A stretch of 64,000 bases of DNA. Origin: Candidatus Methanophagales archaeon (GTDB lineage: Archaea; Halobacteriota; Syntropharchaeia; Alkanophagales; Methanospirareceae). The stretch is taken from NCBI GenBank assembly GCA_017883965.1, contig JAFNKG010000001.1, forward strand, positions 14,893-78,892, given 5' to 3'. The translations under genes and the position numbers were made by a program. Under the pieces are notes generated by a model, which saw nothing but the letters and a program-made list of their open reading frames with translations, was not told the DNA's origin and searched no databases. The stretch's first letter is position 1, and the number at the start of each line of letters is the position of its first letter. Below are positions 4,809 to 60,042 of this stretch, piece by piece.

Positions 4809-5225
4809 ATGGAGCCGAAAATAGTGGCGTTTTGCTGTAATTGGTGCTCTTACGCAGGCGCAGACCTTGCGGGTGTATCTCGCTATCAATATCCCGCGGC
4901 TGTGCGAATATTAAGGGTAATGTGTTCCGGAAGAGTAGAACCCGTTTTCATATTCGATGCGTTTAAAAATGGCGCTGACGGCGTCATCGTCACTGGTTGC
5001 CACCCGGGTGAATGCCATTACGTCTCTGGTAACCTGAATGCGGAGAAGAGGGTGGAAAATACGAGGAAAGCGTTGGAGTATTTAGGACTTGGAGCAGAAC
5101 GGCTTCGTCTGAAATGGATATCCGCATCAGAGGGGTTGAAGTTTGCAGAGGTGATGCGAGAGTTTACAGAGGAAATAAAGGCGTTGGGACCTTCCCCGAT
5201 AAAGTCTCGTATGAGTGTGAAATAA
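4809..5225 (+). CDS. mvhD: methyl-viologen-reducing hydrogenase delta subunit MvhD
   Basis: 138 aa. N-terminus IVAFCCNWCSYAGADLAGVSRYQYP is typical of MvhD. It lies directly upstream of hdrA. Confidence 0.85.
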   Translation: MEPKIVAFCCNWCSYAGADLAGVSRYQYPAAVRILRVMCSGRVEPVFIFDAFKNGADGVIVTGCHPGECHYVSGNLNAEKRVENTRKALEYLGLGAERLRLKWISASEGLKFAEVMREFTEEIKALGPSPIKSRMSVK

Positions 5226-5257
5226 TAAACCTTCTTTTTACAAAGCAAAAATATAAA

Positions 5258-7246
5258 ATGGAGAAAAAGGAGAAGGTGAACGAAGGTGAAGAAAGGATAG
5301 GGGTGTTTGTATGCCGATGCGGCGTGAACATAGGTGGAGTTGTAGATTGTGATGAGGTAGCGAGATATGCAGCGACGCTACCCGGAGTGGTTTGCGTATC
5401 CGTGAACAAGTTCACGTGTTCTGATTCGGGACAGGCGGACATACAGGAGCATATTCGTAAATATAATTTGAATCGAGTGGTAGTTGCGGCATGCACACCA
5501 AAGACACACGAGCCTACTTTTAGAGTATGTTGTGAGGAAGCAGGGGTGAATCAGTATCTTTTTGAGTTCGTTAACATCCGCGACCAGTGTAGCTGGATGC
5601 ATATATGGGACCATGAGGGCGCAACGAAGAAGGCGAAGGATTTAGTTCGGATGGGTGTTTATCGTGCTAAGCTGTTAGAGCCACTGGAGGAATCAGAAGT
5701 TGCAGTGGACCAGAATGCAGTGGTTATAGGCGCTGGAGTTGCGGGGATGCAAGCGGCAATGGACCTCGGGGACATGGGGTTCCATGTCTATTTAGTGGAG
5801 AAGGAGCCTTCGATTGGAGGAAGGATGGCTCGTTTTGACAAGGTATTTCCAACGAATGACTGCTCTATCTGCATCTTAGGACCGAAGATGGTGGAAGTAG
5901 CACGTAACGAGAACATCGAGATAATGTCGTATTCAGAGGTAGTGGAGGTGAAAGGGTTCGTGGGTAATTTTGAAGCCACGATAGAGCACAAGCCCAGATA
6001 TATAGATGTGGATAAATGCACGGGGTGTGCGCAGTGTGTGGAGAAATGTCCGGTAGAAGTGCCATACGACTTCAACGAAGGTTTTGGGACTCGAAGAGCG
6101 GCATACGTACCTTTTCCTCAGGCTGTTCCGCTCCGCGGGGTAATAGATCTGGAAAATTGTTTGAGAAGCGAAGGTAAGGAGTGCAAAGCCTGTATAAAAG
6201 CATGTGAGCGCGATGCGATTGATTTCTCGCAGGAGAAAAAATATAGTAAGGTGAAGGCGGGTGTGATAATAGTAGCGCCGGGGTTCGTAACGTATGACCC
6301 TGAGCCAGGAAACGATTATGGATATGGGATGGATGACAACGTAATAACGACGATGGAATTTGAGCGGCTTTTGAATGCCGCTGGTCCAACAGAAGGGCAT
6401 GTTATAAGACCATCAGATTGTAAGGAGCCCATGCGGCTGGGGTTCATCAATTGTGTTGGTTCTCGTGACGTTAAAACGAACGTTCATTGCTCTGGTGGTG
6501 TCTGCTGTATGTTTAACATGAAGAATGCGATTCTATTGAAGGAGAAGCGACCGGAGATTTCGTGCTATCTATTTTATATGGATATAAGAGCACCGTTCAG
6601 AGGTTATGAGGAGTTTTACAACCGAGCAAGGGAGCTTGGCATAAGATTCGTCCGGGGAAGACCTTCGGAGGTAATAGAGAAGGAGAACGGGAATTTGGTG
6701 ATAAGAGCAGAGGACACATTGAAAGGCGTAGTAAGGAATATAGAAGTGGATTTAGTGGTTCTTGGCACGGGTATTGTGCCGCATTCGGATATAGAAAAAT
6801 TATCGAAGATGTTGAAGATACCACGCGCTGCGGATGGGCTGCTTATGGAAGCACATCCTAAATTGGGGCCTGTGGATACGGTATTAGGGGGCGTATTCGT
6901 TGCCGGTGGTGCATCAGGTCCGAAGGACATACCGCTTTCTGTTGCGCAGGGCAGTGGTGCGGCAGCAAGAGCCGCGAGATTGCTCGTTACTGGAAAAGCG
7001 AAAATAGAAGGAATAACCGCAGCTTCGGATACGGAACGATGCATAGGATGTTCATTATGCGTGGATGTTTGCCCTTATGCTGCATTGACATTGGATGAGA
7101 AAGAGAACAGGGTGATGGTTGTTGAGGCGATCTGCAAAGGTTGTGGCACCTGTGCGGCATCATGTCCCGTGGGTGCGATGGAGCAGAGGCATTTTAAAAC
7201 CGAGCAGGTAGAAGCGCAAGTGAAGAACTTGTTTGCGCTTACGTAA
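5258..7246 (+). CDS. hdrA: heterodisulfide reductase subunit A (FAD and Fe-S flavoprotein)
   Basis: N-terminal Cys cluster (VFVCRCGVNIGG), FAD motif VIGAGVAGMQAA, inserted and C-terminal 2x[4Fe-4S] motifs. Start chosen at the ATG at 5258, after the mvhD stop. Confidence 0.9.
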   Translation: MEKKEKVNEGEERIGVFVCRCGVNIGGVVDCDEVARYAATLPGVVCVSVNKFTCSDSGQADIQEHIRKYNLNRVVVAACTPKTHEPTFRVCCEEAGVNQYLFEFVNIRDQCSWMHIWDHEGATKKAKDLVRMGVYRAKLLEPLEESEVAVDQNAVVIGAGVAGMQAAMDLGDMGFHVYLVEKEPSIGGRMARFDKVFPTNDCSICILGPKMVEVARNENIEIMSYSEVVEVKGFVGNFEATIEHKPRYIDVDKCTGCAQCVEKCPVEVPYDFNEGFGTRRAAYVPFPQAVPLRGVIDLENCLRSEGKECKACIKACERDAIDFSQEKKYSKVKAGVIIVAPGFVTYDPEPGNDYGYGMDDNVITTMEFERLLNAAGPTEGHVIRPSDCKEPMRLGFINCVGSRDVKTNVHCSGGVCCMFNMKNAILLKEKRPEISCYLFYMDIRAPFRGYEEFYNRARELGIRFVRGRPSEVIEKENGNLVIRAEDTLKGVVRNIEVDLVVLGTGIVPHSDIEKLSKMLKIPRAADGLLMEAHPKLGPVDTVLGGVFVAGGASGPKDIPLSVAQGSGAAARAARLLVTGKAKIEGITAASDTERCIGCSLCVDVCPYAALTLDEKENRVMVVEAICKGCGTCAASCPVGAMEQRHFKTEQVEAQVKNLFALT

Positions 7247-7273: not shown

Positions 7274-7558
7274 ATGAAGATTGAAGGAATAATATGGCTC
7301 AGAGACGTTGTGGACAAGCTTGCTCTTAAACATCATGTTGAAACTCATGAGGTTGAGGAAGTGCTCAGTGGCAAACCTAAATTTCGCTTTGTTGAGAAAG
7401 GGGAACGAGAAGGTGAAGGTGTATACTTAGCTTTGGGACAAACTAGCGCAGGGCGATATTTGTCTGTACTTTTTATTTATAAAAGGACAAAAGAAGTATT
7501 AATATTAAGTGCCAGAGACATGGCAAGAAAAGAGAGGAGGCAATATGACAAAAAGTAA
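7274..7558 (+). CDS. BrnT-like (DUF497) toxin of a type II toxin-antitoxin pair
   Basis: 94 aa. Shows IIWLRDVVDKLALKHHV near the N-terminus and ILSARDMARKERRQY near the C-terminus, as in the BrnT family. Overlaps the downstream antitoxin-like gene. Confidence 0.6.
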   Translation: MKIEGIIWLRDVVDKLALKHHVETHEVEEVLSGKPKFRFVEKGEREGEGVYLALGQTSAGRYLSVLFIYKRTKEVLILSARDMARKERRQYDKK

Positions 7559-7808
7559 ATCTAAAAACCTGCCACGTTTTGGGTCTCTTGATGAACTTGT
7601 AAACTTCTTTGATACCCATGACCTAGGTGAATACTGGAGTGAGATGCCCGATGCCCACTTCGAAGTGGATATCAAGAGAAAGACACATCTCTTTGCTATT
7701 GACACTGAACTTGCTAATAAATTGACAGAAATTGCCAAAAACAGAGAAATCTCTTCTGAAGCACTTATCAATACTTGGTTGAAAGAGAAAATTCAGGAAC
7801 AGATGTAG
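7545..7808 (+). CDS. BrnA-like antitoxin
   Basis: Starts at an ATG after a GAGAGGAGG motif and overlaps the brnT-like 3' end by 14 nt. Small acidic protein matching the BrnA pattern (LPRFGSLDELVNFFDTHDLGEYW). Confidence 0.55.
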   Translation: MTKSKSKNLPRFGSLDELVNFFDTHDLGEYWSEMPDAHFEVDIKRKTHLFAIDTELANKLTEIAKNREISSEALINTWLKEKIQEQM

Positions 7809-7945: not shown

Positions 7946-10357
7946 ATGCTATTAAAGACGCTAACACTGCGGAATTACCGAAAATATAAGAATGCGTATG
8001 TTGAATTCCCGGATGGTGTTATAGGCATTACAGGATTGAATGGAGTGGGAAAAACGACTTTGATAGAGGCAATAGGCTGGGTCTTGTTCGGACATCACGC
8101 CGCAAGGACAACAAAAGAACTTATAAAAAGGGAAGGTGCATCGTCGAATGAGTCTTGCAGTGTTGCTCTGGAATTCGAGCTGGAAGGCGATGGGTATAAA
8201 GTAGTAAGAGAAATGGCAGGTAAGAATTTAGTGCCAAAAGCAAGTCTCGTTATCAATGGAAAACACATAACCAACAATGCTGACGAGGTTACGGGAGTCA
8301 TAGAGGACAGAATAAGCATGGATTATCAGTCTTTTTTCACTTCGGTTTTCGCAAGGCAGAAGGAGTTGAATGCGCTGTCAACAATGAAAGCAGCGGAGAG
8401 GAAAAAGCTCGTGCTTCGAATGCTCGGCATAGAAAGGATAGAAAAGAGTATACAGACGATAAGGGAGGAAAAGAGGGGGAAAGAGAAGAAGATAGAGGGT
8501 ATAAAAGCGGCAACCGTGGATAAAGAAGGCAGAAAGAAGATAGAAGTGCTTAAAAGCAAGAATGAAGAACAGGAGAAGACGAAAGATGCGCTTTTACCGA
8601 TTATAAAAGAAATAGATGATTCTAAAGTGGTGAAAGAGAAAGAGGCAGCGGAAGCGAAAGAAGAATTGGAAGCCGCTACGAGGAAATATGAGATATACGT
8701 GGAGCTGAGTAATACTATGGGCGAGAGAAGAAGCGACCTGGAGAATACGAGGAAGAGGCGGGAAGAGAAAGAAAAAGAGCTTCAGGATTTGCTCGTAAAG
8801 AATAAGCGGCTTGAAGGAATTGCAGAGAAAGAAACAGAATATTTCCGGTTTAGAGAGCAGAAGGATGCGATGGATGCGCTGCGGGAAAATTATCAGCGAA
8901 AGCAGGAGTTATTGAAGCGGGAAGAGAAGACCAGGGTGGAGTTAAATAAACGTGAAGAGAAAATAAGGGGGTTGAATGCGAGACGGGTAGAATTTGAGGG
9001 CATAGAGGATAAGGTGGAAGAGGTGAAGAAGGGGATTGAAGGGATAAGGAAACAAAAGGAGAGCATACATTCTTCGCTCGGCGCTTTTAAATCACTCGTA
9101 TTACAGAATAAAAAGGATATAGAAGAGAGTAAAGAGAAGAAGAAGAAAATAGAGGATTTGGGTCCTGATGGTGAATGTCCGATGTGCGAGAGGAAATTGG
9201 AAACGCACTACGAAACGTTGATAAAGAAGCTGAGTGAGGAGATAAAAAATAGAAAGGAGAAACTTCGTTCGATTTTTAATGAATACAAAAGTAAAAAGGA
9301 GGAACTTGCTTCTAAGGAAAAGGAGGGGGATTTGCTTATAAAGGAGGATAAGGAGCTGGAGAAACGTGTAACGGAGAAGCACGCACTGGATATAAGAATT
9401 GTGGATGAAGCACGTGAATTAGAGCGATGGAACAAGGAATTGGAGGTTATAAAAACAGATTTGACGCCTGTTATGGATGTGGAGTTTGATGAAAACGCCT
9501 ATAAGGACGTTATTTCTGCACTAAAAGGTCTTGAAGTGGTGTATAAGGAGATAATCGGGTTAAGAGCAGAGATAGGAAGGACTGAAGAAGTGAAGAATAA
9601 CGTGCGGACGTTGAGCGAATTGGAAAGCAAGGTTGTGGAGGATATAACGGCGTTGCAAAGACAAATAGAAGATTTAGCGTTTGATAAAATGGCGTATGTG
9701 GAGATGAAGGCGAGATACGAACGTAAGAAGGAGGAATTGAACGAAGTGAAGCTGAGGCTTCTGGAGAAGAGAAACGAGTTCGAGAACATGTGCAAGGACA
9801 TAGAGCGAGTATTGGAGGAGATAGAGGAGCAGAAGAGGTTAATGGAGGAGAAAGAGAAAGAAGAGACGGAGATAATGTATCTCAGCTTGCTTGAAAAGAT
9901 AATGAACGACTTCAAGGTGTACATGGTGGGTATGATTCGCCCGCTGCTTTCTGATTACGCATCTGATATGCTGAGAAGGTTAACGGATGGTAAATACAGC
10001 AAGCTGGAGCTGGATGAGAACTACGATGTGTTTATTTATGATGAAGGAACGCCATATGAGATAAACAGGTTCTCAGGTGGAGAGGAGGACTTAGCGAATC
10101 TTTGTCTAAGATTAGCGATTTCCGCTGTCGTCTCTGAAAGAAGTGCTATTCAAACTAATTTCATTATTCTCGATGAGATTTTCGGTTCGCAGGACGCATT
10201 TCGGAAAAGGAATATTATTCTGGCGTTGAACGAGCTCTCAAAGAAGTTTCGGCAGATATTTCTGATTACGCATATAGAGGACGTGAAGGATTATATGGAA
10301 TACGTGTTGAGGGTGACGGAAGATGAGGAGGGCGTGAGCTGGGTGAAGATAGGGTAA
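7946..10357 (+). CDS. Rad50/SbcC-like SMC-family ATPase with a zinc hook
   Basis: 803 aa. Walker A (GLNGVGKTT), long K/E-rich coiled coil, central CPMC zinc-hook, C-terminal FSGGEE signature and ILDEIFGSQD D-loop. No Mre11/SbcD gene is adjacent. Confidence 0.75.
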   Translation: MLLKTLTLRNYRKYKNAYVEFPDGVIGITGLNGVGKTTLIEAIGWVLFGHHAARTTKELIKREGASSNESCSVALEFELEGDGYKVVREMAGKNLVPKASLVINGKHITNNADEVTGVIEDRISMDYQSFFTSVFARQKELNALSTMKAAERKKLVLRMLGIERIEKSIQTIREEKRGKEKKIEGIKAATVDKEGRKKIEVLKSKNEEQEKTKDALLPIIKEIDDSKVVKEKEAAEAKEELEAATRKYEIYVELSNTMGERRSDLENTRKRREEKEKELQDLLVKNKRLEGIAEKETEYFRFREQKDAMDALRENYQRKQELLKREEKTRVELNKREEKIRGLNARRVEFEGIEDKVEEVKKGIEGIRKQKESIHSSLGAFKSLVLQNKKDIEESKEKKKKIEDLGPDGECPMCERKLETHYETLIKKLSEEIKNRKEKLRSIFNEYKSKKEELASKEKEGDLLIKEDKELEKRVTEKHALDIRIVDEARELERWNKELEVIKTDLTPVMDVEFDENAYKDVISALKGLEVVYKEIIGLRAEIGRTEEVKNNVRTLSELESKVVEDITALQRQIEDLAFDKMAYVEMKARYERKKEELNEVKLRLLEKRNEFENMCKDIERVLEEIEEQKRLMEEKEKEETEIMYLSLLEKIMNDFKVYMVGMIRPLLSDYASDMLRRLTDGKYSKLELDENYDVFIYDEGTPYEINRFSGGEEDLANLCLRLAISAVVSERSAIQTNFIILDEIFGSQDAFRKRNIILALNELSKKFRQIFLITHIEDVKDYMEYVLRVTEDEEGVSWVKIG

Positions 10358-38995: not shown

Positions 38996-41449
38996 TTACC
39001 ACACACGTCCGCTGATGAAAAACGGTTTTTTACCCTCCATCTTGCTTATCTGCACTGCTCCTCGGTCCATAAGCGGAGCCACATATTTTAAAACATCCTG
39101 CACAGGTATCGAAAGTGTTTCCGAAATCCCTTCAATTGTATATTCCTCGCTCTCCAACATAGAAGTTACCTTTTCTTCCATGAATTCGCTTCTTATTATT
39201 TCCTCAAAAAAAGCATCTATCTCTTTCTCTTCCAATTTAACATATCTCGTAATTTCCGCTATCTTACCGACAATCCATCTTAGTTTAGGGTTATTCACAC
39301 CCTCTTTTACCGTGATGAGTGAGTCATAATGCTTTTCAAGCTCAAAAGGTCCCAATTCTTTTATCTCATTCACCGAACTCTCTATCAATTCCTTGAACTT
39401 CTGCCCTTCTGCTGCGGAAATCCAGCCGAGTCTTAACCTCTCCGGGTCTATTCCTGCGAATTCAAGCAGTTTCTTCACGAACTTCACGCGCATCTCTGCA
39501 TGATAGTTGCCCACAACATAATGACAATCGCCGATATGGCACCCTGTAACGAGAACACCTTCTGCGTGGTGGAAGAAAGGCTCGACCATCATCCACGGGT
39601 CTATTCGTCCGGAACACATCACCCTGATTAGCTTTGCATTCGGCGGATACTGGAATCGCGATACACCAGCCATATCTGCACCTGCGTAAGAGCACCAGTT
39701 GCAACTGAAAGCCAATATCCTCGGTCTTATCTCTATTCTCTCCTCTTCCGGCACAAACGCACTTTTTATCTGTGCTAAAATCTGCTCATCGCGGAAGTGC
39801 CGCATTGTTATCGCCTGATACGGACACGCACCTGCGCATGTTCCGCATCCTTTGCACAATGCCCTGTTCCCCTCTGCACCAAACTCCCCCGGTCCATACA
39901 TATTTATTTTAATACTGCCATATTCGCATATCTCCGCACATAATCCACATCCCTTGCATATACTCTGGCTTATGTCCGAAACAATACCCTCTGTTTCTAC
40001 TTCGCTTTTTGTCAATATTGTGGAAGCCCTTGATGCAGTTCCATACGCCTCCGCTACACTTTCAGGCACGAATTTCGGTGAATGCGCCGTCCCGCATAGA
40101 AAAACACCGTCGGTAGAGAAATCAATGGGTCGCAGCTTGACATGCGCTTCAAAGAAAAATCCATCCAGGCCCAACGGAACCCTTAATAGTTTAGAAAGTT
40201 CCAATGCATCCGGGTGCTGCACCATCGGTGTGGAGAGAACAACCAAATCGGCTTTGTATTCTCGCTCCTCTCTCACGAACTCAGAGAAGAACTTCACTTT
40301 CAGTCCTCCATCCTCTTTCACTACTTCCGGAAGTTTATCAGGACTATACTTATCGAATCGTATGCCGGTTTGCATTGCTTTCCTGTAAAGATTCTCGTAT
40401 TCGTCGCCAAATACACGAATCCCATTGTGGAGTATATGAATATTCGCATCAGGATTTTTTTCCTTGAGTAAAATTGCATTTTTTATCGCCACTGCACAAC
40501 AGATTCTCGAACAGTATGCCACTCTTTGCCCTCTGGAACCCACACATTGAATCATAACCACTTCTTTCTCTTTCAACTCGCTATCTTTCTGCTTCTCTTC
40601 CAGTTCCATCTGCGTGATTACTTCCTCATATTCGCCGTATCCATAGAGTCCGTCTGACTTTAGAACCTCCGCACCCGTGGCAACTATTATCGTGCCCACC
40701 TTGAAATTATGAGCTTTCTCCTCTCCATTCTCCTTTTGCACGACAGTTACCTCAAAGTTTCCGACATATCCGTCCACTTTCCTAACGAGGGAAGAAGTGA
40801 AGAGTTTTATTCGTTGATGCTCTTTTACTTTCTTAATTGTAGGTTCTAAAGATGCGAGAGCATCTACATTCCCGGGGTAAAGCTTGTTTATCTTTCGTAA
40901 CAGCCCTCCGACTTCCGCTTCTTTTTCCACGAGATACACATCGAAGCCTCGATTTGCAATACTTAGCGCTGTGGTCATGCCCGATACACCCGCACCAATA
41001 ACCATTGTAGTGTTCTCAACGCCGATATTTATGTATTCTAATGGCTCTAACCTCGCAGCTCTGACAACACCCATTCTAACCAAATCCTTTGCCTTCTCCG
41101 TTGCTTCTTCAGGCTCTCGCATGTGCACCCAGCTACACTGGTCTCGAATGTTCACAAAATCGAAAAGATAAGGGTTTAATCCTGCATCCTGGCACGCACT
41201 TCGGAATAACGGCTCGTGTGTTCTCGGTGTGCATGCCGCCACTATCACCCTGTTAAGCCCGTGTTCCTTTATCGCATTTTTTATCGCCGTCACGCCCTCA
41301 TCTGAACACGTGTATATATTGCGTTCCACATATACAACTCCGGGAAGCTTTTCTGCGTATTCTATTACTGATGGCACATCCACAGTGCCACCAATATTCG
41401 TGCCGCAGTGGCAAACAAAAACCCCTGTTCTTACCTCCTCATTTGCCAT
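38996..41449 (-). CDS. HdrA2-type heterodisulfide-reductase subunit A fused to an MvhD domain plus a C-terminal extension of about 130 aa
   Basis: HdrA motifs (VFVCHCGTNIGG, VIGAGVSGMTTA, two CxxCxxC ferredoxin clusters) followed by an MvhD motif (ILAFSCNWCSYAGADMAG). The C-terminal tail has no recognisable domain. Confidence 0.85.
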   Translation of the reverse strand: MANEEVRTGVFVCHCGTNIGGTVDVPSVIEYAEKLPGVVYVERNIYTCSDEGVTAIKNAIKEHGLNRVIVAACTPRTHEPLFRSACQDAGLNPYLFDFVNIRDQCSWVHMREPEEATEKAKDLVRMGVVRAARLEPLEYINIGVENTTMVIGAGVSGMTTALSIANRGFDVYLVEKEAEVGGLLRKINKLYPGNVDALASLEPTIKKVKEHQRIKLFTSSLVRKVDGYVGNFEVTVVQKENGEEKAHNFKVGTIIVATGAEVLKSDGLYGYGEYEEVITQMELEEKQKDSELKEKEVVMIQCVGSRGQRVAYCSRICCAVAIKNAILLKEKNPDANIHILHNGIRVFGDEYENLYRKAMQTGIRFDKYSPDKLPEVVKEDGGLKVKFFSEFVREEREYKADLVVLSTPMVQHPDALELSKLLRVPLGLDGFFFEAHVKLRPIDFSTDGVFLCGTAHSPKFVPESVAEAYGTASRASTILTKSEVETEGIVSDISQSICKGCGLCAEICEYGSIKINMYGPGEFGAEGNRALCKGCGTCAGACPYQAITMRHFRDEQILAQIKSAFVPEEERIEIRPRILAFSCNWCSYAGADMAGVSRFQYPPNAKLIRVMCSGRIDPWMMVEPFFHHAEGVLVTGCHIGDCHYVVGNYHAEMRVKFVKKLLEFAGIDPERLRLGWISAAEGQKFKELIESSVNEIKELGPFELEKHYDSLITVKEGVNNPKLRWIVGKIAEITRYVKLEEKEIDAFFEEIIRSEFMEEKVTSMLESEEYTIEGISETLSIPVQDVLKYVAPLMDRGAVQISKMEGKKPFFISGRVW

Positions 41450-41604: not shown

Positions 41605-41925
41605 TCACACCTGTATTTTTGAGACTGTAATGCAGTAGAGTTTGTCTAGTTCAGTAAAATGATCTAACAAAGCCTCGTATAGTTGTGCCTGTTTAGAATT
41701 CATGAACACATATCCACACGTCGGACAATACATTTTTTCAAACCCATGTACCGTGATTCTACCATTTAAAAAATCGACATCAAATTGCTTTATTTCCAAT
41801 TTAGACCCACATTTTGGACATTCCGTTATTTCAACTATTTCCCAATCTTCTTCCTTCCACCCTTCTTCCCAACTTTCTTCCGCCATAATATCCTCTGGTT
41901 TTATTTCTTCTGTAACCATAACCAT
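41605..41925 (-). CDS. YgiT/MqsA-type zinc-ribbon protein; candidate antitoxin partner of the upstream BrnT-like gene
   Basis: 106 aa. CPKCGS...ITVHGF...YCPTCG zinc ribbon. Starts 4 nt after the brnT-like stop. A paralogous ribbon occurs in the 59587 protein. Confidence 0.55.
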   Translation of the reverse strand: MVMVTEEIKPEDIMAEESWEEGWKEEDWEIVEITECPKCGSKLEIKQFDVDFLNGRITVHGFEKMYCPTCGYVFMNSKQAQLYEALLDHFTELDKLYCITVSKIQV

Positions 41926-41929
41926 ATTA

Positions 41930-42208
41930 CTATTTTTTCGCTTTCCTCTTATATAACTTTTTCATCTTCTCTGGTGCTTCATATGCACTCAGCATTATAA
42001 ATATATTTTCTCTTACCTTCCGCAAAACTATGAATAGGACACGCCCTTCCGCTTCTGCTAAAACTATGGTGCGCTTTTCACCATTTCGAGTTACTGCTTT
42101 TGTATATGTTTTCCCAATTAAAGCATTTTCAACTTCATACCTCCTAACACCGTGCCTTCTAATATGCTCGATTGCCTTTTCATCCCAGACTATACGGACC
42201 TTTGACAT
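41930..42208 (-). CDS. BrnT-like (DUF497) toxin
   Basis: 92 aa. IVWDEKAIEHIRRHGV and IMLSAYEAPEKMKKLY match the BrnT N- and C-terminal motifs. Paralog of the 7274 gene. Confidence 0.6.
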   Translation of the reverse strand: MSKVRIVWDEKAIEHIRRHGVRRYEVENALIGKTYTKAVTRNGEKRTIVLAEAEGRVLFIVLRKVRENIFIMLSAYEAPEKMKKLYKRKAKK

Positions 42209-42289
42209 ATTGATACGCTCATTTATTCCCCTATCCCTCCCTTAATTTCAGATTTATCTATGATAAGCAAGTGTAAATGATGCATCTAA

Positions 42290-43606
42290 CTAAGACAATG
42301 AAGAAATAACCTCACCCGCTCTACCAGCCGCGCCACTCGCCTCTGCAACCGAATCCGTAATATCTTTTGGACTCTGTGCAAACCCACAAACAAATACTCC
42401 TTCTCTTGTGGTATCTACCGGCGCATATAACGGGTCTTTCACCTTAAAGAATCCATATTCGTCCAATTCTACTCCCAATATCTTTGCCTGTTCTTCGACT
42501 CCCTTACTCGGCACCAGCGCCGTAGCCAATATAACTAAATCAACCTCCATCCTTTTAAGTTCCCCTGTCAGGGTATCTTCATACCATATCACCGGGCTCT
42601 TATCCCCATTCTCCGTTATTTTCCCGGGTCTCGCCCTTATATAATTTATCCCATATTCTTCCATACCCCGCTCTATATACTCCTGAAAGCCTCTTCCAAA
42701 AGCTCTGAGGTCAGTATAAAATACGAAAGATTCCATATCCTCCTCATGTTCCCTCGCCAGCATCCCGCTCTTCGTTGAATACATGCAGCACACGGAGGAG
42801 CAATAAGGATATCTCTTCAGGTCCCTCGAGCCCACGCAAAGGATAAAAGCTAACTTCTTCGCTGGTTTTTCATCGCTTAACCGAACGAGATGCCCGCCAG
42901 TTGGTCCTCCTGCATTTATCATCCTCTCATACTGTAATCCCGTTATCACATTTTCTATTCGCCCATATCCATACTCCTCTATCTCATAAGGTTCATAAGC
43001 ATCGAGTCCTGTTGCAACTATTATAGCACCCACATGAAGCTCAACCTCTTCCTCTTTCTGCTCGAAATCAATCGCATCCCTCTCACACGCTTCTTTACAC
43101 GCTGGTGCTTCCCCGCATTTGCCCTTCGTTATGAATATACATCTTTCCTCATCAATTACCGCAACCCTCGGAACTGCCTGTGCAAAAGGCAGGTATGCCG
43201 CTCCTCTTTTCCCAAGCCCCATATCGAATTCGTCCGGGAATCTATCTTTAAGTAAACAAATATCTTCACAAGCGCTGCACCCCGTGCATTTTTCTTCGTC
43301 CACGTATCTCGGTTTCTTACGAACTTTTACAGTAAAGTCCCCTTTCTCTCCCGATACCTCGCTCACCACGGAATACGAAAGCACGGTGATGTTCTCATGC
43401 CCGAAACATTCGAGCATCTTCGGCGCAAGTATGCATATCGAGCAGTCATTTGTCGGGAAGGTTTTATCCAACTGAGCCATTCGACCACCGATAGAAGAAT
43501 TCTTCTCTACTAAATACACCCTGAAGTCCTGCTCCGCTAAGTCAAGCGCCGCTTGAATCCCTGCTACTCCTCCTCCTATCACCAGCACACTTTTATTGCC
43601 TTCCAT
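42290..43606 (-). CDS. truncated HdrA-like FAD flavoprotein lacking the N-terminal Cys domain and the C-terminal ferredoxin
   Basis: 438 aa. VLVIGGGVAGIQAA, the conserved CSICILAPKM and an inserted CTGCSACEDIC ferredoxin. HdrA core only. Confidence 0.8.
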   Translation of the reverse strand: MEGNKSVLVIGGGVAGIQAALDLAEQDFRVYLVEKNSSIGGRMAQLDKTFPTNDCSICILAPKMLECFGHENITVLSYSVVSEVSGEKGDFTVKVRKKPRYVDEEKCTGCSACEDICLLKDRFPDEFDMGLGKRGAAYLPFAQAVPRVAVIDEERCIFITKGKCGEAPACKEACERDAIDFEQKEEEVELHVGAIIVATGLDAYEPYEIEEYGYGRIENVITGLQYERMINAGGPTGGHLVRLSDEKPAKKLAFILCVGSRDLKRYPYCSSVCCMYSTKSGMLAREHEEDMESFVFYTDLRAFGRGFQEYIERGMEEYGINYIRARPGKITENGDKSPVIWYEDTLTGELKRMEVDLVILATALVPSKGVEEQAKILGVELDEYGFFKVKDPLYAPVDTTREGVFVCGFAQSPKDITDSVAEASGAAGRAGEVISSLS

Positions 43607-43670: not shown

Positions 43671-44075
43671 TCAATCATTGCCATTTTCAAAACTGGTCAC
43701 TTTATTTTTCCTAAAGCAGATTTCAAAGTGTTTGAAGACATCTTCTCTTCCTAAAAGATAAGGAACATCCTCGATTAATGCAATTGCAACCTTGGCTTTA
43801 AACATTTTATCTACAATCTTCATTCTAACTTCTTTTATGATTACCGGAATTTTGCCATCTCCAATTCCTCTTATCTCTTTAATATCCTCCTCTTCCACCC
43901 TTGTCTTTAATGCCCTAATGAAAGATATTGGAAGAAGCGTAACATCCGCACCTGAATCAGTATAAGCCAGTATCCGTGTCCAACCGAGTTCTTCGGTCTC
44001 TATTTCAAATTCGACAATAGGCCTGTAAATCTCTCCAAATATCCTCGACCTCTCTTTTTGATAGGGAAAATCCAT
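43671..44075 (-). CDS. retropepsin-like aspartic protease (DSGA active site), copy 1
   Basis: 134 aa. AYTDSGADVTLLP has the clan-AA D[ST]GA motif. Paralog of 49228-49641. Confidence 0.7.
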   Translation of the reverse strand: MDFPYQKERSRIFGEIYRPIVEFEIETEELGWTRILAYTDSGADVTLLPISFIRALKTRVEEEDIKEIRGIGDGKIPVIIKEVRMKIVDKMFKAKVAIALIEDVPYLLGREDVFKHFEICFRKNKVTSFENGND

Positions 44076-44315
44076 CTAATCACCTGTAAGAATCAATGTC
44101 TCTTCCCTTTGCACAAACGCCAAGACTGGGTTATCTTTTGGAAAATCTTTTTTCGCCTTTTCTAAGACATCTATTGCATTATCTCCGCTGGCAACAATCT
44201 TCTTTCCTATCAGTGCGATGTGTTTCCCTCTAAACGCTTCTAATTCCTTTGGAAAAGAAGCAAACCATTTTAGTTCTTCATACATTCTTTCACTACCTCT
44301 TTTCTTTTTGTGCAT
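44076..44315 (-). CDS. small conserved partner protein of the aspartic protease, copy 1
   Basis: 79 aa. Homologous to 49650-49883 (YEELKWF...KIVASG...ETLILT versus YEWFL...KVVARA...ETLVLI). Abuts the protease gene. Confidence 0.45.
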   Translation of the reverse strand: MHKKKRGSERMYEELKWFASFPKELEAFRGKHIALIGKKIVASGDNAIDVLEKAKKDFPKDNPVLAFVQREETLILTGD

Positions 44316-59505: not shown

Positions 59506-59580
59506 ATGAAGATATACAAATTAGATTGGGATGAAGAAAACATCTCTCACATTGCTGAGCATAACGTAACCAAAATCTAA
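59506..59580 (+). pseudogene. truncated remnant of a BrnT-like toxin gene
   Basis: The 24-codon ORF MKIYKLDWDEENISHIAEHNVTKI* reproduces the BrnT N-terminal motif (compare IVWDEKAIEHIRRHGV) and then stops. It ends 6 nt upstream of the ZnF-AbrB gene. Confidence 0.5.
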
Positions 59581-59586
59581 ATAATT

Positions 59587-60042
59587 ATGAGAGCAGAGAA
59601 ATTCAAAACGGAAAAAGAAGAAGCGGAATACTGGAACCAGATAGATACAACAACCTTAGATTTAGAGGAAGTTGAATTGGAATACGAACCAGGAATACCG
59701 GATAATATATGTGTGATTTGTGGAGAGGAAATGGAAGAAAGAAAGATGAATGTTGAAGCTTTTGGTGGTAAGATTACTATTCATGGCGTAAAGAAATATC
59801 ATTGCAAAAAATGTAACAGGTTTACAATTGGCTCTGAAAAGGCCGAAAGGCTATCTCAAATGCTAACAAGATTACGGCAAAGAGAAGATAGTATATTAGA
59901 ATCCATGTGCGTTATTGATTTTGACAATGAAGGGTACTTTGTTAGAATTCCTATCGAATTGGCAAATAGGATTGGAATTGAGAAAAAAGACCGGGCAAGA
60001 ATTTGTGTTGAAGGTAAAAAGATAATTTTAGAGTTTGAATAA
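59587..60042 (+). CDS. YgiT/MqsA-type zinc-ribbon protein fused to a C-terminal AbrB/MazE-like swapped-hairpin domain
   Basis: CVICGE...ITIHGV...HCKKCN ribbon, paralogous to 41605-41925. The C-terminus VRIPIELANRIGIEKKDRARICVEGKKIILEFE is AbrB/SpoVT-like. Confidence 0.6.
   Translation: MRAEKFKTEKEEAEYWNQIDTTTLDLEEVELEYEPGIPDNICVICGEEMEERKMNVEAFGGKITIHGVKKYHCKKCNRFTIGSEKAERLSQMLTRLRQREDSILESMCVIDFDNEGYFVRIPIELANRIGIEKKDRARICVEGKKIILEFE

Follow-up and report, generated by a model that had tools for sequence, protein, structure and literature searches.

We found that two small adjacent genes of an uncultured Candidatus Methanophagales archaeon form a conserved pair that is highly likely to be, or to have been until recently, a toxin-antitoxin (TA) module with a zinc-ribbon protein as its antitoxin. 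The pair occupies positions 41605-42208 of a 64,000-nucleotide (nt) stretch of contig JAFNKG010000001.1, the whole of which is referred to here as the window. The first gene encodes a protein related to the RNase toxin BrnT (DUF497 family), and the second, which starts after a gap of 4 nt (TAAT), encodes a protein with a YgiT/MqsA-type zinc ribbon. A first-pass annotation of the same DNA had already described both open reading frames (ORFs), and its coordinates, 4-nt gap and quoted sequences were all borne out; both ORFs lie on the minus strand. The cysteine spacing that it gave, CxxC-x16-HG-x5-CxxC, had to be corrected to CxxC-x20-HG-x5-CxxC (C36, C39, C67 and C70). We favour, with a probability of roughly 0.55, a modular TA module whose antitoxin makes two contacts with its toxin, one through an acidic N-terminus and one through the ribbon. 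The higher likelihood of a TA module as such adds to this the weight of a second reading, in which the ribbon neutralises the toxin alone. Other loci and proteins in the comparison are given by L and P numbers.

The gene pair and its protein families

The two genes are found again, at identical or almost identical spacing, among unrelated neighbours, including hypothetical genes and arginase (L001/L002), ClpB and a major facilitator superfamily (MFS) transporter (L025/L026), and those of two further loci (L008 and L023). More distant zinc-ribbon proteins are also encoded directly 3' of DUF497-like genes (L011, L018, L016, L022 and L012). In L011, BrnT (31.9 bits) is followed by P0050, and in L012 the upstream call has 137 amino acids (aa), the C-terminal 90 of which are 46% identical to the window toxin. 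In two other loci, L015 and L017, a toxin remnant that had not been called as a gene precedes the zinc-ribbon gene. The first-pass annotation had named a lack of such pairs elsewhere as the result that would speak against its proposal; we found a DUF497 gene or remnant immediately upstream in 10 of the 12 zinc-ribbon lineages inspected. The other two are L005, where all but the final ~25 nt of the toxin gene is missing, and L021, which differs in its partner.

The flanking DNA could not be aligned between contexts, and similarity runs from the ATG of the toxin gene to the stop codon of the zinc-ribbon gene. Both ORFs are under purifying selection, with ratios of nonsynonymous to synonymous substitution rates (dN/dS) <0.6 in comparisons with copies from other contexts that are up to 25% divergent. 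The pairing of the two ORFs is not due to chance. The nearest database relatives are found on fosmid GZfos3D4 from anaerobic methanotrophic archaea (ANME) and in Methanophagales metagenome-assembled genomes (MAGs), and the window is therefore almost certainly part of an ANME-1 chromosome. Carriage by mobile elements was considered and set aside: no relatives of the toxin clade or of either zinc-ribbon protein were detected among IMG/VR viral contigs and PLSDB plasmids. PADLOC gave no defence-system assignment for the toxin, the zinc-ribbon protein or the 661-aa partner described below. Upstream of the toxin gene there is an inverted repeat (TTATC-ATA-GATAA), recognised by eye only, that is not conserved elsewhere. 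A scan for sigma-70-type promoters gave matches at background level, and the sigma-70 consensus is irrelevant to an archaeon.

The product of the first gene can be classified from its sequence as a divergent homologue of the BrnT/DUF497 family, as had been suggested earlier. It matched BrnT_toxin (PF04365) in Pfam with an E-value of 1.3e-6 and 29.0 bits, and a precomputed match to this family is present in most of its close homologues. A profile of 14 homologues (A2) aligned at full length, over 84 columns, with the canonical BrnT encoded at 7274-7558 of the window (hhalign 93%, E 3.5e-7). Its best sequence match in the PDB was BrnT itself (3U97, E 0.02), with the 'toxin' 7VD7 also ranking at the top. 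The residues reported to be needed for BrnT activity or toxicity are D6, E7, K9, K16/H17, R41, R72 and E78 (PMC5086665; PMC13284704). In the alignment with 3U97, D6, E7, K9, K16/H17 and R41 correspond to D9, E10, K11, R18/H19 and R46 of the window toxin, and H19 is invariant within the clade. The equivalence of E80 with BrnT E78 hinges on an indel of 1-2 residues in the alignment. The AlphaFold2 (AF2) model of the toxin (predicted local distance difference test score, pLDDT, 78) has its elements in the expected order, beta-alpha-alpha-beta4-alpha. The dN/dS of the toxin gene was 0.24-0.56.

The label 'YgiT/MqsA-type' is justified for the zinc-ribbon domain of the second protein. A family profile that includes distant relatives (A3) matched the N-domain of MqsA (3GA8, 3GN5, 3HI2 and 2KZ8) with E-values of 3-6e-5, as one block that takes in the two CxxC motifs and the helix after them. 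Significance was reached once the distant relatives were added; the narrow profile (A1) found MqsA in the PDB at E 0.24 only. Five relatives (P0047, P0051, P0061, P0063 and P0044) pass the YgiT_finger model TIGR03831 with 22.9-34.4 bits, HMMER connects them with the window protein at E-values from 1e-5 to 1e-10, and some relatives are already named 'YgiT-type zinc finger protein' by NCBI. The profile comparison (E 3e-5) and the relatives that pass TIGR03831 thus agree with the earlier assignment of the ribbon. The 106-aa protein as a whole is not a member of the MqsA family, because it has no helix-turn-helix (HTH) domain and its partner is not MqsR. It is also unlike BrnA, as had been proposed: neither Pfam nor NCBIfam revealed a ribbon-helix-helix (RHH) or BrnA domain in it, and Pfam gave no PF12441 match for 41605-41925.

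The zinc-ribbon family is very small. An ANME-type profile run with HMMER over 1.84 billion representatives retrieved 23 proteins at E <=1e-3. The window protein passes DUF7479 (PF24292) marginally (27.9 bits against a cut-off of 27), a family for which we found no paper or described function in the literature. Its dN/dS was 0.10-0.37, the ribbon showing the lowest dN and the C-terminal tail the highest, and AF2 predicts a helix at residues 78-103. Some relatives carry additional domains. In P0039 and P0051, ribbon and helix are followed by an AbrB/MazE domain (PF04014, above cut-off), and P0050 has an additional BrnA N-terminal motif at its start (PF12441 at positions 2-37, E 1e-4). At the start of the window gene, a 6-nt tandem duplication of ATGGTT (ATGGTTATGGTT, 41914-41925, minus strand) results in MVMV where relatives have MV, and the second ATG (41919) is the start codon used in those relatives. 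Compared with close homologues, the gene ends at a premature TGA (41605-41610, minus strand), and the IKGVKAEV tail of the relatives is still encoded in the DNA 3' of this stop.

Partner modules and alternative explanations

A metagenome scan with the toxin alignment returned 16 loci, whose toxins are 29-89% identical to the window toxin. Their partners fall into five types: a zinc ribbon with a helix (type 1, the ANME type); proteins without a ribbon, of 661 aa (on Syntrophoarchaeum-type contigs) or 189 aa (type 2); proteins of 72-82 aa in which the N-terminal motif leads straight into an AbrB-like domain (type 3); mini-proteins of 48-50 aa (type 4); and canonical BrnA (type 5; L038, PF12441 51.7 bits). 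An acidic, Trp-containing N-terminus is common to types 1-3. Residues 6-36 of the window zinc-ribbon protein matched the N-terminus of the 661-aa partner in L009 (BLASTP, E 2e-5), and the ribbon protein P0041 and the ribbon-less partner in L028 share MK.V.I...DLE.LPEDEWV (E 2e-12). Furthermore, when a hidden Markov model (HMM) of the N-termini that precede the ribbon was compared with 1070 six-frame segments, its first four non-self matches were the ORFs next to the toxin gene in L030, L029, L028 and L009, clearly separated from noise. Because this segment is shared with ribbon-less partners and its charge is opposite to that of the toxin (-11 versus +13), we infer that it is the part with which the partners in this clade contact the toxin, the zinc ribbon being an additional module. 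It had been proposed that the zinc-ribbon protein is a swapped antitoxin for the same toxin family. A partner other than BrnA was indeed found, but the exchange is not a clean swap of whole proteins: the acidic N-terminus stays and the C-terminal module varies.

The large partners were found in several loci. In L009 (3273-5258; also L027, L029 and L030), a toxin homologue with 47% identity is followed by the 661-aa protein with the acidic N-terminal motif, and L010 (731-1300) encodes the 189-aa partner with the same motif. Beyond the motif, neither of them received a Pfam or PADLOC assignment, save for a marginal CagE_TrbE_VirB match. Both could be large effectors or sensors fused to an antitoxin.

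Homology between the N-terminus of the zinc-ribbon protein and the BrnA N-terminal motif was also considered and set aside. The HMM missed the BrnA proteins of the window and of L038, and we do not claim this homology because only two bridging architectures, P0050 and the window protein at 59587-60042, support it.

In the reading that we prefer, an ANME-1 (Methanophagales-type) archaeon would carry the pair on its chromosome as a type II-like TA module. The upstream gene would encode a basic toxin, presumably an RNase, from the BrnT/DUF497 branch within the RelE/BECR superfamily. The downstream gene would encode an acidic modular protein antitoxin, its neutralising role being suggested by the pairing and by charge complementarity. 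The 34-residue Glu/Asp/Trp-rich N-terminus of this antitoxin is predicted to contact and mask the toxin. The structural Cys4 ribbon, which probably binds zinc, could touch the toxin at a second site through sheet extension, besides stabilising the antitoxin fold; by analogy with MqsA, such a contact is plausible. The third part would be the helix with its variable tail, which in relatives is followed by an AbrB/MazE DNA-binding domain. This domain appears to have been lost from the window copy, so the module is probably not autoregulated and probably depends on transcription from the hdr cluster in which it landed. Taken as a whole, the module would be a mobile, decaying selfish element and not a component of Hdr.

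A second reading, implicit in the first-pass annotation and in our view unlikely, keeps the TA module but assigns neutralisation to the ribbon alone, as in the case of the MqsA N-domain and MqsR, and regards the acidic N-terminus as a disordered degron or a solubility tail. MqsA binds MqsR via its zinc domain only, and the MqsR-binding strand and helix comprise S43-M45, S50, F53 and M54 (PMC2791442). In our alignment, YVFMNSKQAQLYE corresponds to this strand and helix and is the most conserved non-cysteine stretch of the family; the low dN of the ribbon points in the same direction. However, toxins that are 41-47% identical to the window toxin have ribbon-less partners (661 aa, 189 aa, 72-82 aa of the AbrB type, and 48-50 aa), and only the N-terminal motif is common to those partners. 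In addition, the N-terminus is kept in population variants in which the ribbon is deleted.

The two-contact module can be taken one step further, to a version that we consider speculative and rather improbable. Here, the acidic Trp-rich N-peptide would be a portable BrnT-neutralising plug mounted on interchangeable modules (none, AbrB, ribbon, ribbon plus AbrB, the 189-aa or the 661-aa protein), and the ANME-1 ribbon would be a zinc- or redox-sensitive stability switch. Zinc- and redox-sensitive stability has been shown for MqsA with ClpXP (PMC8808172). If the plug and switch were real, oxidative or metal stress would unfold the antitoxin and free the RNase. A strictly anaerobic methane oxidiser would then tie growth arrest to its redox state, with no transcriptional autoregulation.

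Several observations weigh against the two-contact module. The Pfam score of the toxin is below the PF04365 gathering cut-off (34.5 bits), the residue equivalent to BrnT R72 is Tyr in the ANME clade (Y76 in the window toxin), and Foldseek with the AF2 model of the toxin did not return BrnT, the best match being a colicin-type RNase domain at a marginal E of 0.05. The window zinc-ribbon protein taken alone matched the MqsA models weakly and under their cut-offs (PF15731, MqsA_antitoxin, 17.3 bits; TIGR03830, 19.3 bits). It was not above the TIGR03831 (YgiT_finger) cut-off of 20.2 bits and was absent from the best 25 of 26 NCBIfam matches at E up to 1, which places this match at E >0.15 at best. 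The AF2 model of the zinc-ribbon protein is of low confidence (pLDDT 67), and its Foldseek matches in the PDB were generic zinc ribbons and C2H2 arrays only (E >0.29), with MqsA absent. No HTH, RHH or AbrB match was found in the 106-aa protein with Pfam and NCBIfam, and its chain ends ~26 residues past the ribbon. The comparison of flanks between contexts revealed no conserved operator or promoter upstream of the module, and in L021 the zinc-ribbon gene follows a PIN/AF2212 pair instead of a DUF497 gene. Finally, many population variants are deleted or fused, and the family may be in decay.

It is also possible, though we think it improbable, that the pair is a decaying non-functional remnant that sits passively in the hdr cluster, with a toxin inactivated by the Tyr at the R72 position and an antitoxin that lacks a DNA-binding domain. 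Deletions, fusions and frameshifts in P0014, P0018, P0019, P0022, L024, L036 and L005 fit this explanation, as do the premature stop and start duplication of the window zinc-ribbon gene and a third module in the window that is already reduced to a toxin stump. Against it, both window ORFs are intact and show dN/dS of 0.1-0.56 relative to copies up to 25% divergent elsewhere, and the toxin appears to keep the catalytic K/R-H, D-E and R positions. Moreover, substitution of the equivalent Arg in RelS lowered toxicity just slightly (PMC13284704).

Module turnover, Hdr context and further features

The pair is co-directional with both flanking hdrA-like genes, and FrhB-like, CODH alpha and CODH epsilon genes are close by. 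The first-pass annotation had pointed out that this pair and the canonical BrnT/BrnA pair of the window lie beside hdrA genes. Both pairs do adjoin hdrA-like genes, but for the zinc-ribbon pair this placement is incidental, as seen from the copies in non-Hdr contexts and from L005. The latter is a near-identical syntenic stretch containing a DUF5678 gene, a gene for a 134-aa protein, an HdrA-like gene and then HdrA. At 3851-4322 of L005, the toxin gene is gone except for the end mentioned above, and the ribbon has been removed by an exact in-frame deletion of 147 nt; what is left is an 82-aa ORF with the acidic N-terminus and the C-terminal helix. The hdr genes are retained in L005 despite the loss of toxin and ribbon. 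The relation to Hdr is positional only, and the module is not an Hdr component.

We rejected, as very improbable, the idea that the zinc-ribbon protein is a redox or FeS/zinc accessory of the Hdr/Mvh electron-bifurcating complex with a secondary DUF497 adjacency, on the grounds of context independence and the syntenic deletion in L005: although its gene is co-directional between two hdrA-like genes, has weak NCBIfam matches to the 'DVU_1557 family redox protein' and a methanogen Cys-rich peptide family, and has a relative whose pair lies inside a methanogenesis-marker cluster (L018), those matches are far under their cut-offs (26 versus 60 bits), the protein moves with the toxin and not with hdr (neighbours ClpB/MFS, a methionyl-tRNA synthetase (MetRS)-like ORF and rpl32e), the ribbon was lost in frame from L005 while the hdr genes were kept, and relatives carry antitoxin-type AbrB domains.

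Population variants of the module include toxin-zinc ribbon fusions, ribbon deletions and chimeras (P0014, P0019, P0022 and P0023), and the toxin is frameshifted in L024. P0022, from an ENA metagenome, is a chimeric ORF that combines a ribbon-deleted remnant of the zinc-ribbon protein with a toxin domain resembling DUF4258 (22.9 bits). In L036 (1-1933), the last 28 toxin codons abut a MetRS-like ORF of 500 aa upstream of an orphan zinc-ribbon gene, which is another independent toxin-loss event. TA operons and hdrA have been reported in structural-variant hotspots of ANME-1 genomes (PMC13385816), and the turnover of the module at this locus fits that report. A BrnT-like gene paired with a zinc ribbon-AbrB gene also occurs in L018 (268-908; Methanosarcinales MAG GCA_046760825.1), inside a methanogenesis-marker/mcr-associated cluster (BcrAD_BadFG, DUF2112, DUF2113 and MCR_C). 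This is another landing of such modules in core energy-metabolism clusters. The toxin is truncated to 53 aa in the sister assemblies L019 and L020.

The same hdr cluster of the window contains, at 43671-44315 on the minus strand, a DUF5678 gene (79 aa) followed by a retropepsin-like gene of 134 aa (RVP, weak). This arrangement recurs in L005 (1989-2603) and L015 (1347-2010), with weak PADLOC matches to PDC-M52B and PDC-M08B, which are families of candidate defence genes. Its recurrence suggests another small mobile or TA-like module.

Two other BrnT-related modules are present in the window (Table 1). The canonical BrnT/BrnA pair at 7274-7808, which had been recognised in the first pass, matched both expected families and lies directly downstream of a 710-aa HdrA-like gene (5114-7246). 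Directly downstream of this pair is a gene for an SMC/Rad50-like AAA ATPase of 803 aa with a long coiled coil (7946-10357, plus strand), which may belong to a locus for defence or repair. The third module, at 59506-60042, had been missed; its neighbours are rpl32e on one side and an amino-acid kinase gene on the other. It consists of a toxin stump and, starting 6 nt after it, an orphan antitoxin paralogue whose BrnA-type N-terminal motif, KFKTEKEEAEYWNQIDTT, was recognised by eye. The paralogue is 28% identical to the zinc-ribbon protein at 41605 across the ribbon (E 4e-11), and its full-length identity to P0050, the protein encoded after an intact BrnT gene in L011, is 42%. It is also 30% identical to P0039, including the AbrB part (the C-terminus of P0039 passes PF04014), and has a weak MqsA_antitoxin match. 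The genome thus holds three stages: BrnT with BrnA (RHH); a BrnT stump with BrnA motif, zinc ribbon and AbrB; and a BrnT-like toxin with acidic N-terminus and zinc ribbon that lacks a DNA-binding domain.

Table 1. Features of the BrnT-related modules and their neighbours, in window positions
Feature	Coordinates	Strand	Remarks
BrnT/DUF497-like toxin gene	41930..42208	-	92 aa, isoelectric point (pI) 10.4, net charge +13; sequence MSKVRIVWDEKAIEHIRRHGV...LSAYEAPEKMKKLY...
Candidate antitoxin gene, zinc ribbon	41605..41925	-	106 aa, pI 4.4
Acidic Trp-rich N-terminal segment	41824..41925	-	Residues 1-34, net charge -11, three Trp
YgiT/MqsA-type zinc ribbon	41686..41823	-	Residues 35-80, C36/C39/C67/C70; includes conserved YVFMNSKQAQLYE
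C-terminal helix and variable tail	41605..41685	-	Residues 81-106 and stop
81-nt spacer, hdrA-like gene to toxin gene	42209..42289	-	Outside the conserved module
hdrA-like FAD/FeS gene	42290..43606	-	438 aa; Pyr_redox_2 and FAD domains; context only
HdrA-MvhD fusion gene	38996..41449	-	817 aa; Pyr_redox_2, Fer4 and FlpD domains; context only
Canonical BrnT toxin gene	7274..7558	+	94 aa; PF04365 39.2 bits, above cut-off
Canonical BrnA-type (CopG/RHH) antitoxin gene	7545..7808	+	CopG_antitoxin PF12441 40.2 bits; likely start ATG 7545, overlapping the toxin gene end
BrnT-like toxin stump	59506..59580	+	24 codons (MKIYKLDWDEENISHIAEHNVTKI*); tblastn with L011 BrnT, 59% over 22 aa, E 3e-5
Orphan antitoxin paralogue	59587..60042	+	151 aa; BrnA-type N-motif, MqsA-like zinc ribbon, helix, AbrB-like C-terminus

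Significance and relation to known systems

The pair would add a domain combination to TA systems, in which an MqsA-type zinc-ribbon antitoxin, either bearing AbrB or lacking it, serves a DUF497/BrnT toxin. The main value of the finding is that the related loci form a natural domain-swap series on one toxin clade. This series makes tractable the question of which antitoxin segment neutralises a BrnT-fold RNase. To our knowledge, there is no structure of a toxin-antitoxin complex for a BrnT-fold RNase. The locus also documents module turnover, by insertion, truncation and in-frame domain loss, beside core energy-metabolism genes in uncultured ANME-1. The general understanding of TA systems is unchanged, because the mix-and-match of toxins and antitoxins is already well established.

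As in type II TA systems generally, two small co-directional genes are present and their pairing is kept across unrelated contexts. An autoregulating DNA-binding domain, as expected of a type II antitoxin, is absent from the window copy. The AbrB/MazE fold (SpoVT_AbrB, PF04014) ends P0039, P0051 and the window protein at 59587-60042, whereas the 41605-41925 protein is without it.

The BrnT/BrnA system of Brucella abortus (PF04365 and PF12441) resembles the pair in toxin family, toxin-first order, tiny gap, small acidic antitoxin and several of the aligned BrnT activity residues (PMC5086665, PMC11980606). In contrast to BrnA, the window antitoxin has no RHH, no detectable BrnA N-terminal motif and no recognisable DNA-binding domain, and it has a Cys4 ribbon instead; the toxin differs in its sub-threshold Pfam score and in the Tyr at the R72 position. 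DUF497 (COG2929) has been described as paired with RHH proteins (Makarova et al. 2009). In a recent survey of modules from the RelE/ParE superfamily, the fusion partners of BrnT were RHH (31) or HTH (2) only, and MqsA-type partners were listed for DUF4258 and not for BrnT (Gerdes 2025; PMC11980606). In the limited literature searched, we found no paper on DUF497 with a YgiT-type zinc ribbon.

MqsR/MqsA of Escherichia coli (PF15723 and PF15731) also has its toxin gene first, and its antitoxin has a homologous CxxC…CxxC zinc domain followed by a helix (PMC2791442). The window toxin, however, belongs to DUF497 and not to MqsR, and its antitoxin lacks the C-terminal XRE-HTH domain of MqsA, in place of which relatives have AbrB. 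The window protein also has an extra acidic N-terminal extension of ~34 residues. MqsA-like antitoxins are known for DUF4258 toxins, among them 17 cases of DUF4258-MqsA fusion (PMC11980606). These systems provide a precedent for an MqsA-type zinc-finger antitoxin on a BECR-fold toxin other than MqsR, although the toxin family is a different one.

Another precedent is RelS-RelI of Mycobacterium tuberculosis, in which the first gene encodes a BrnT-like toxin and the antitoxin that neutralises it is not BrnA (PMC13284704). RelI differs from the window antitoxin in being an HTH-containing dimer without structural homologues and without a zinc ribbon, and the system is bacterial and experimentally characterised. 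RelS-RelI shows that BrnT-fold toxins tolerate unrelated antitoxins.

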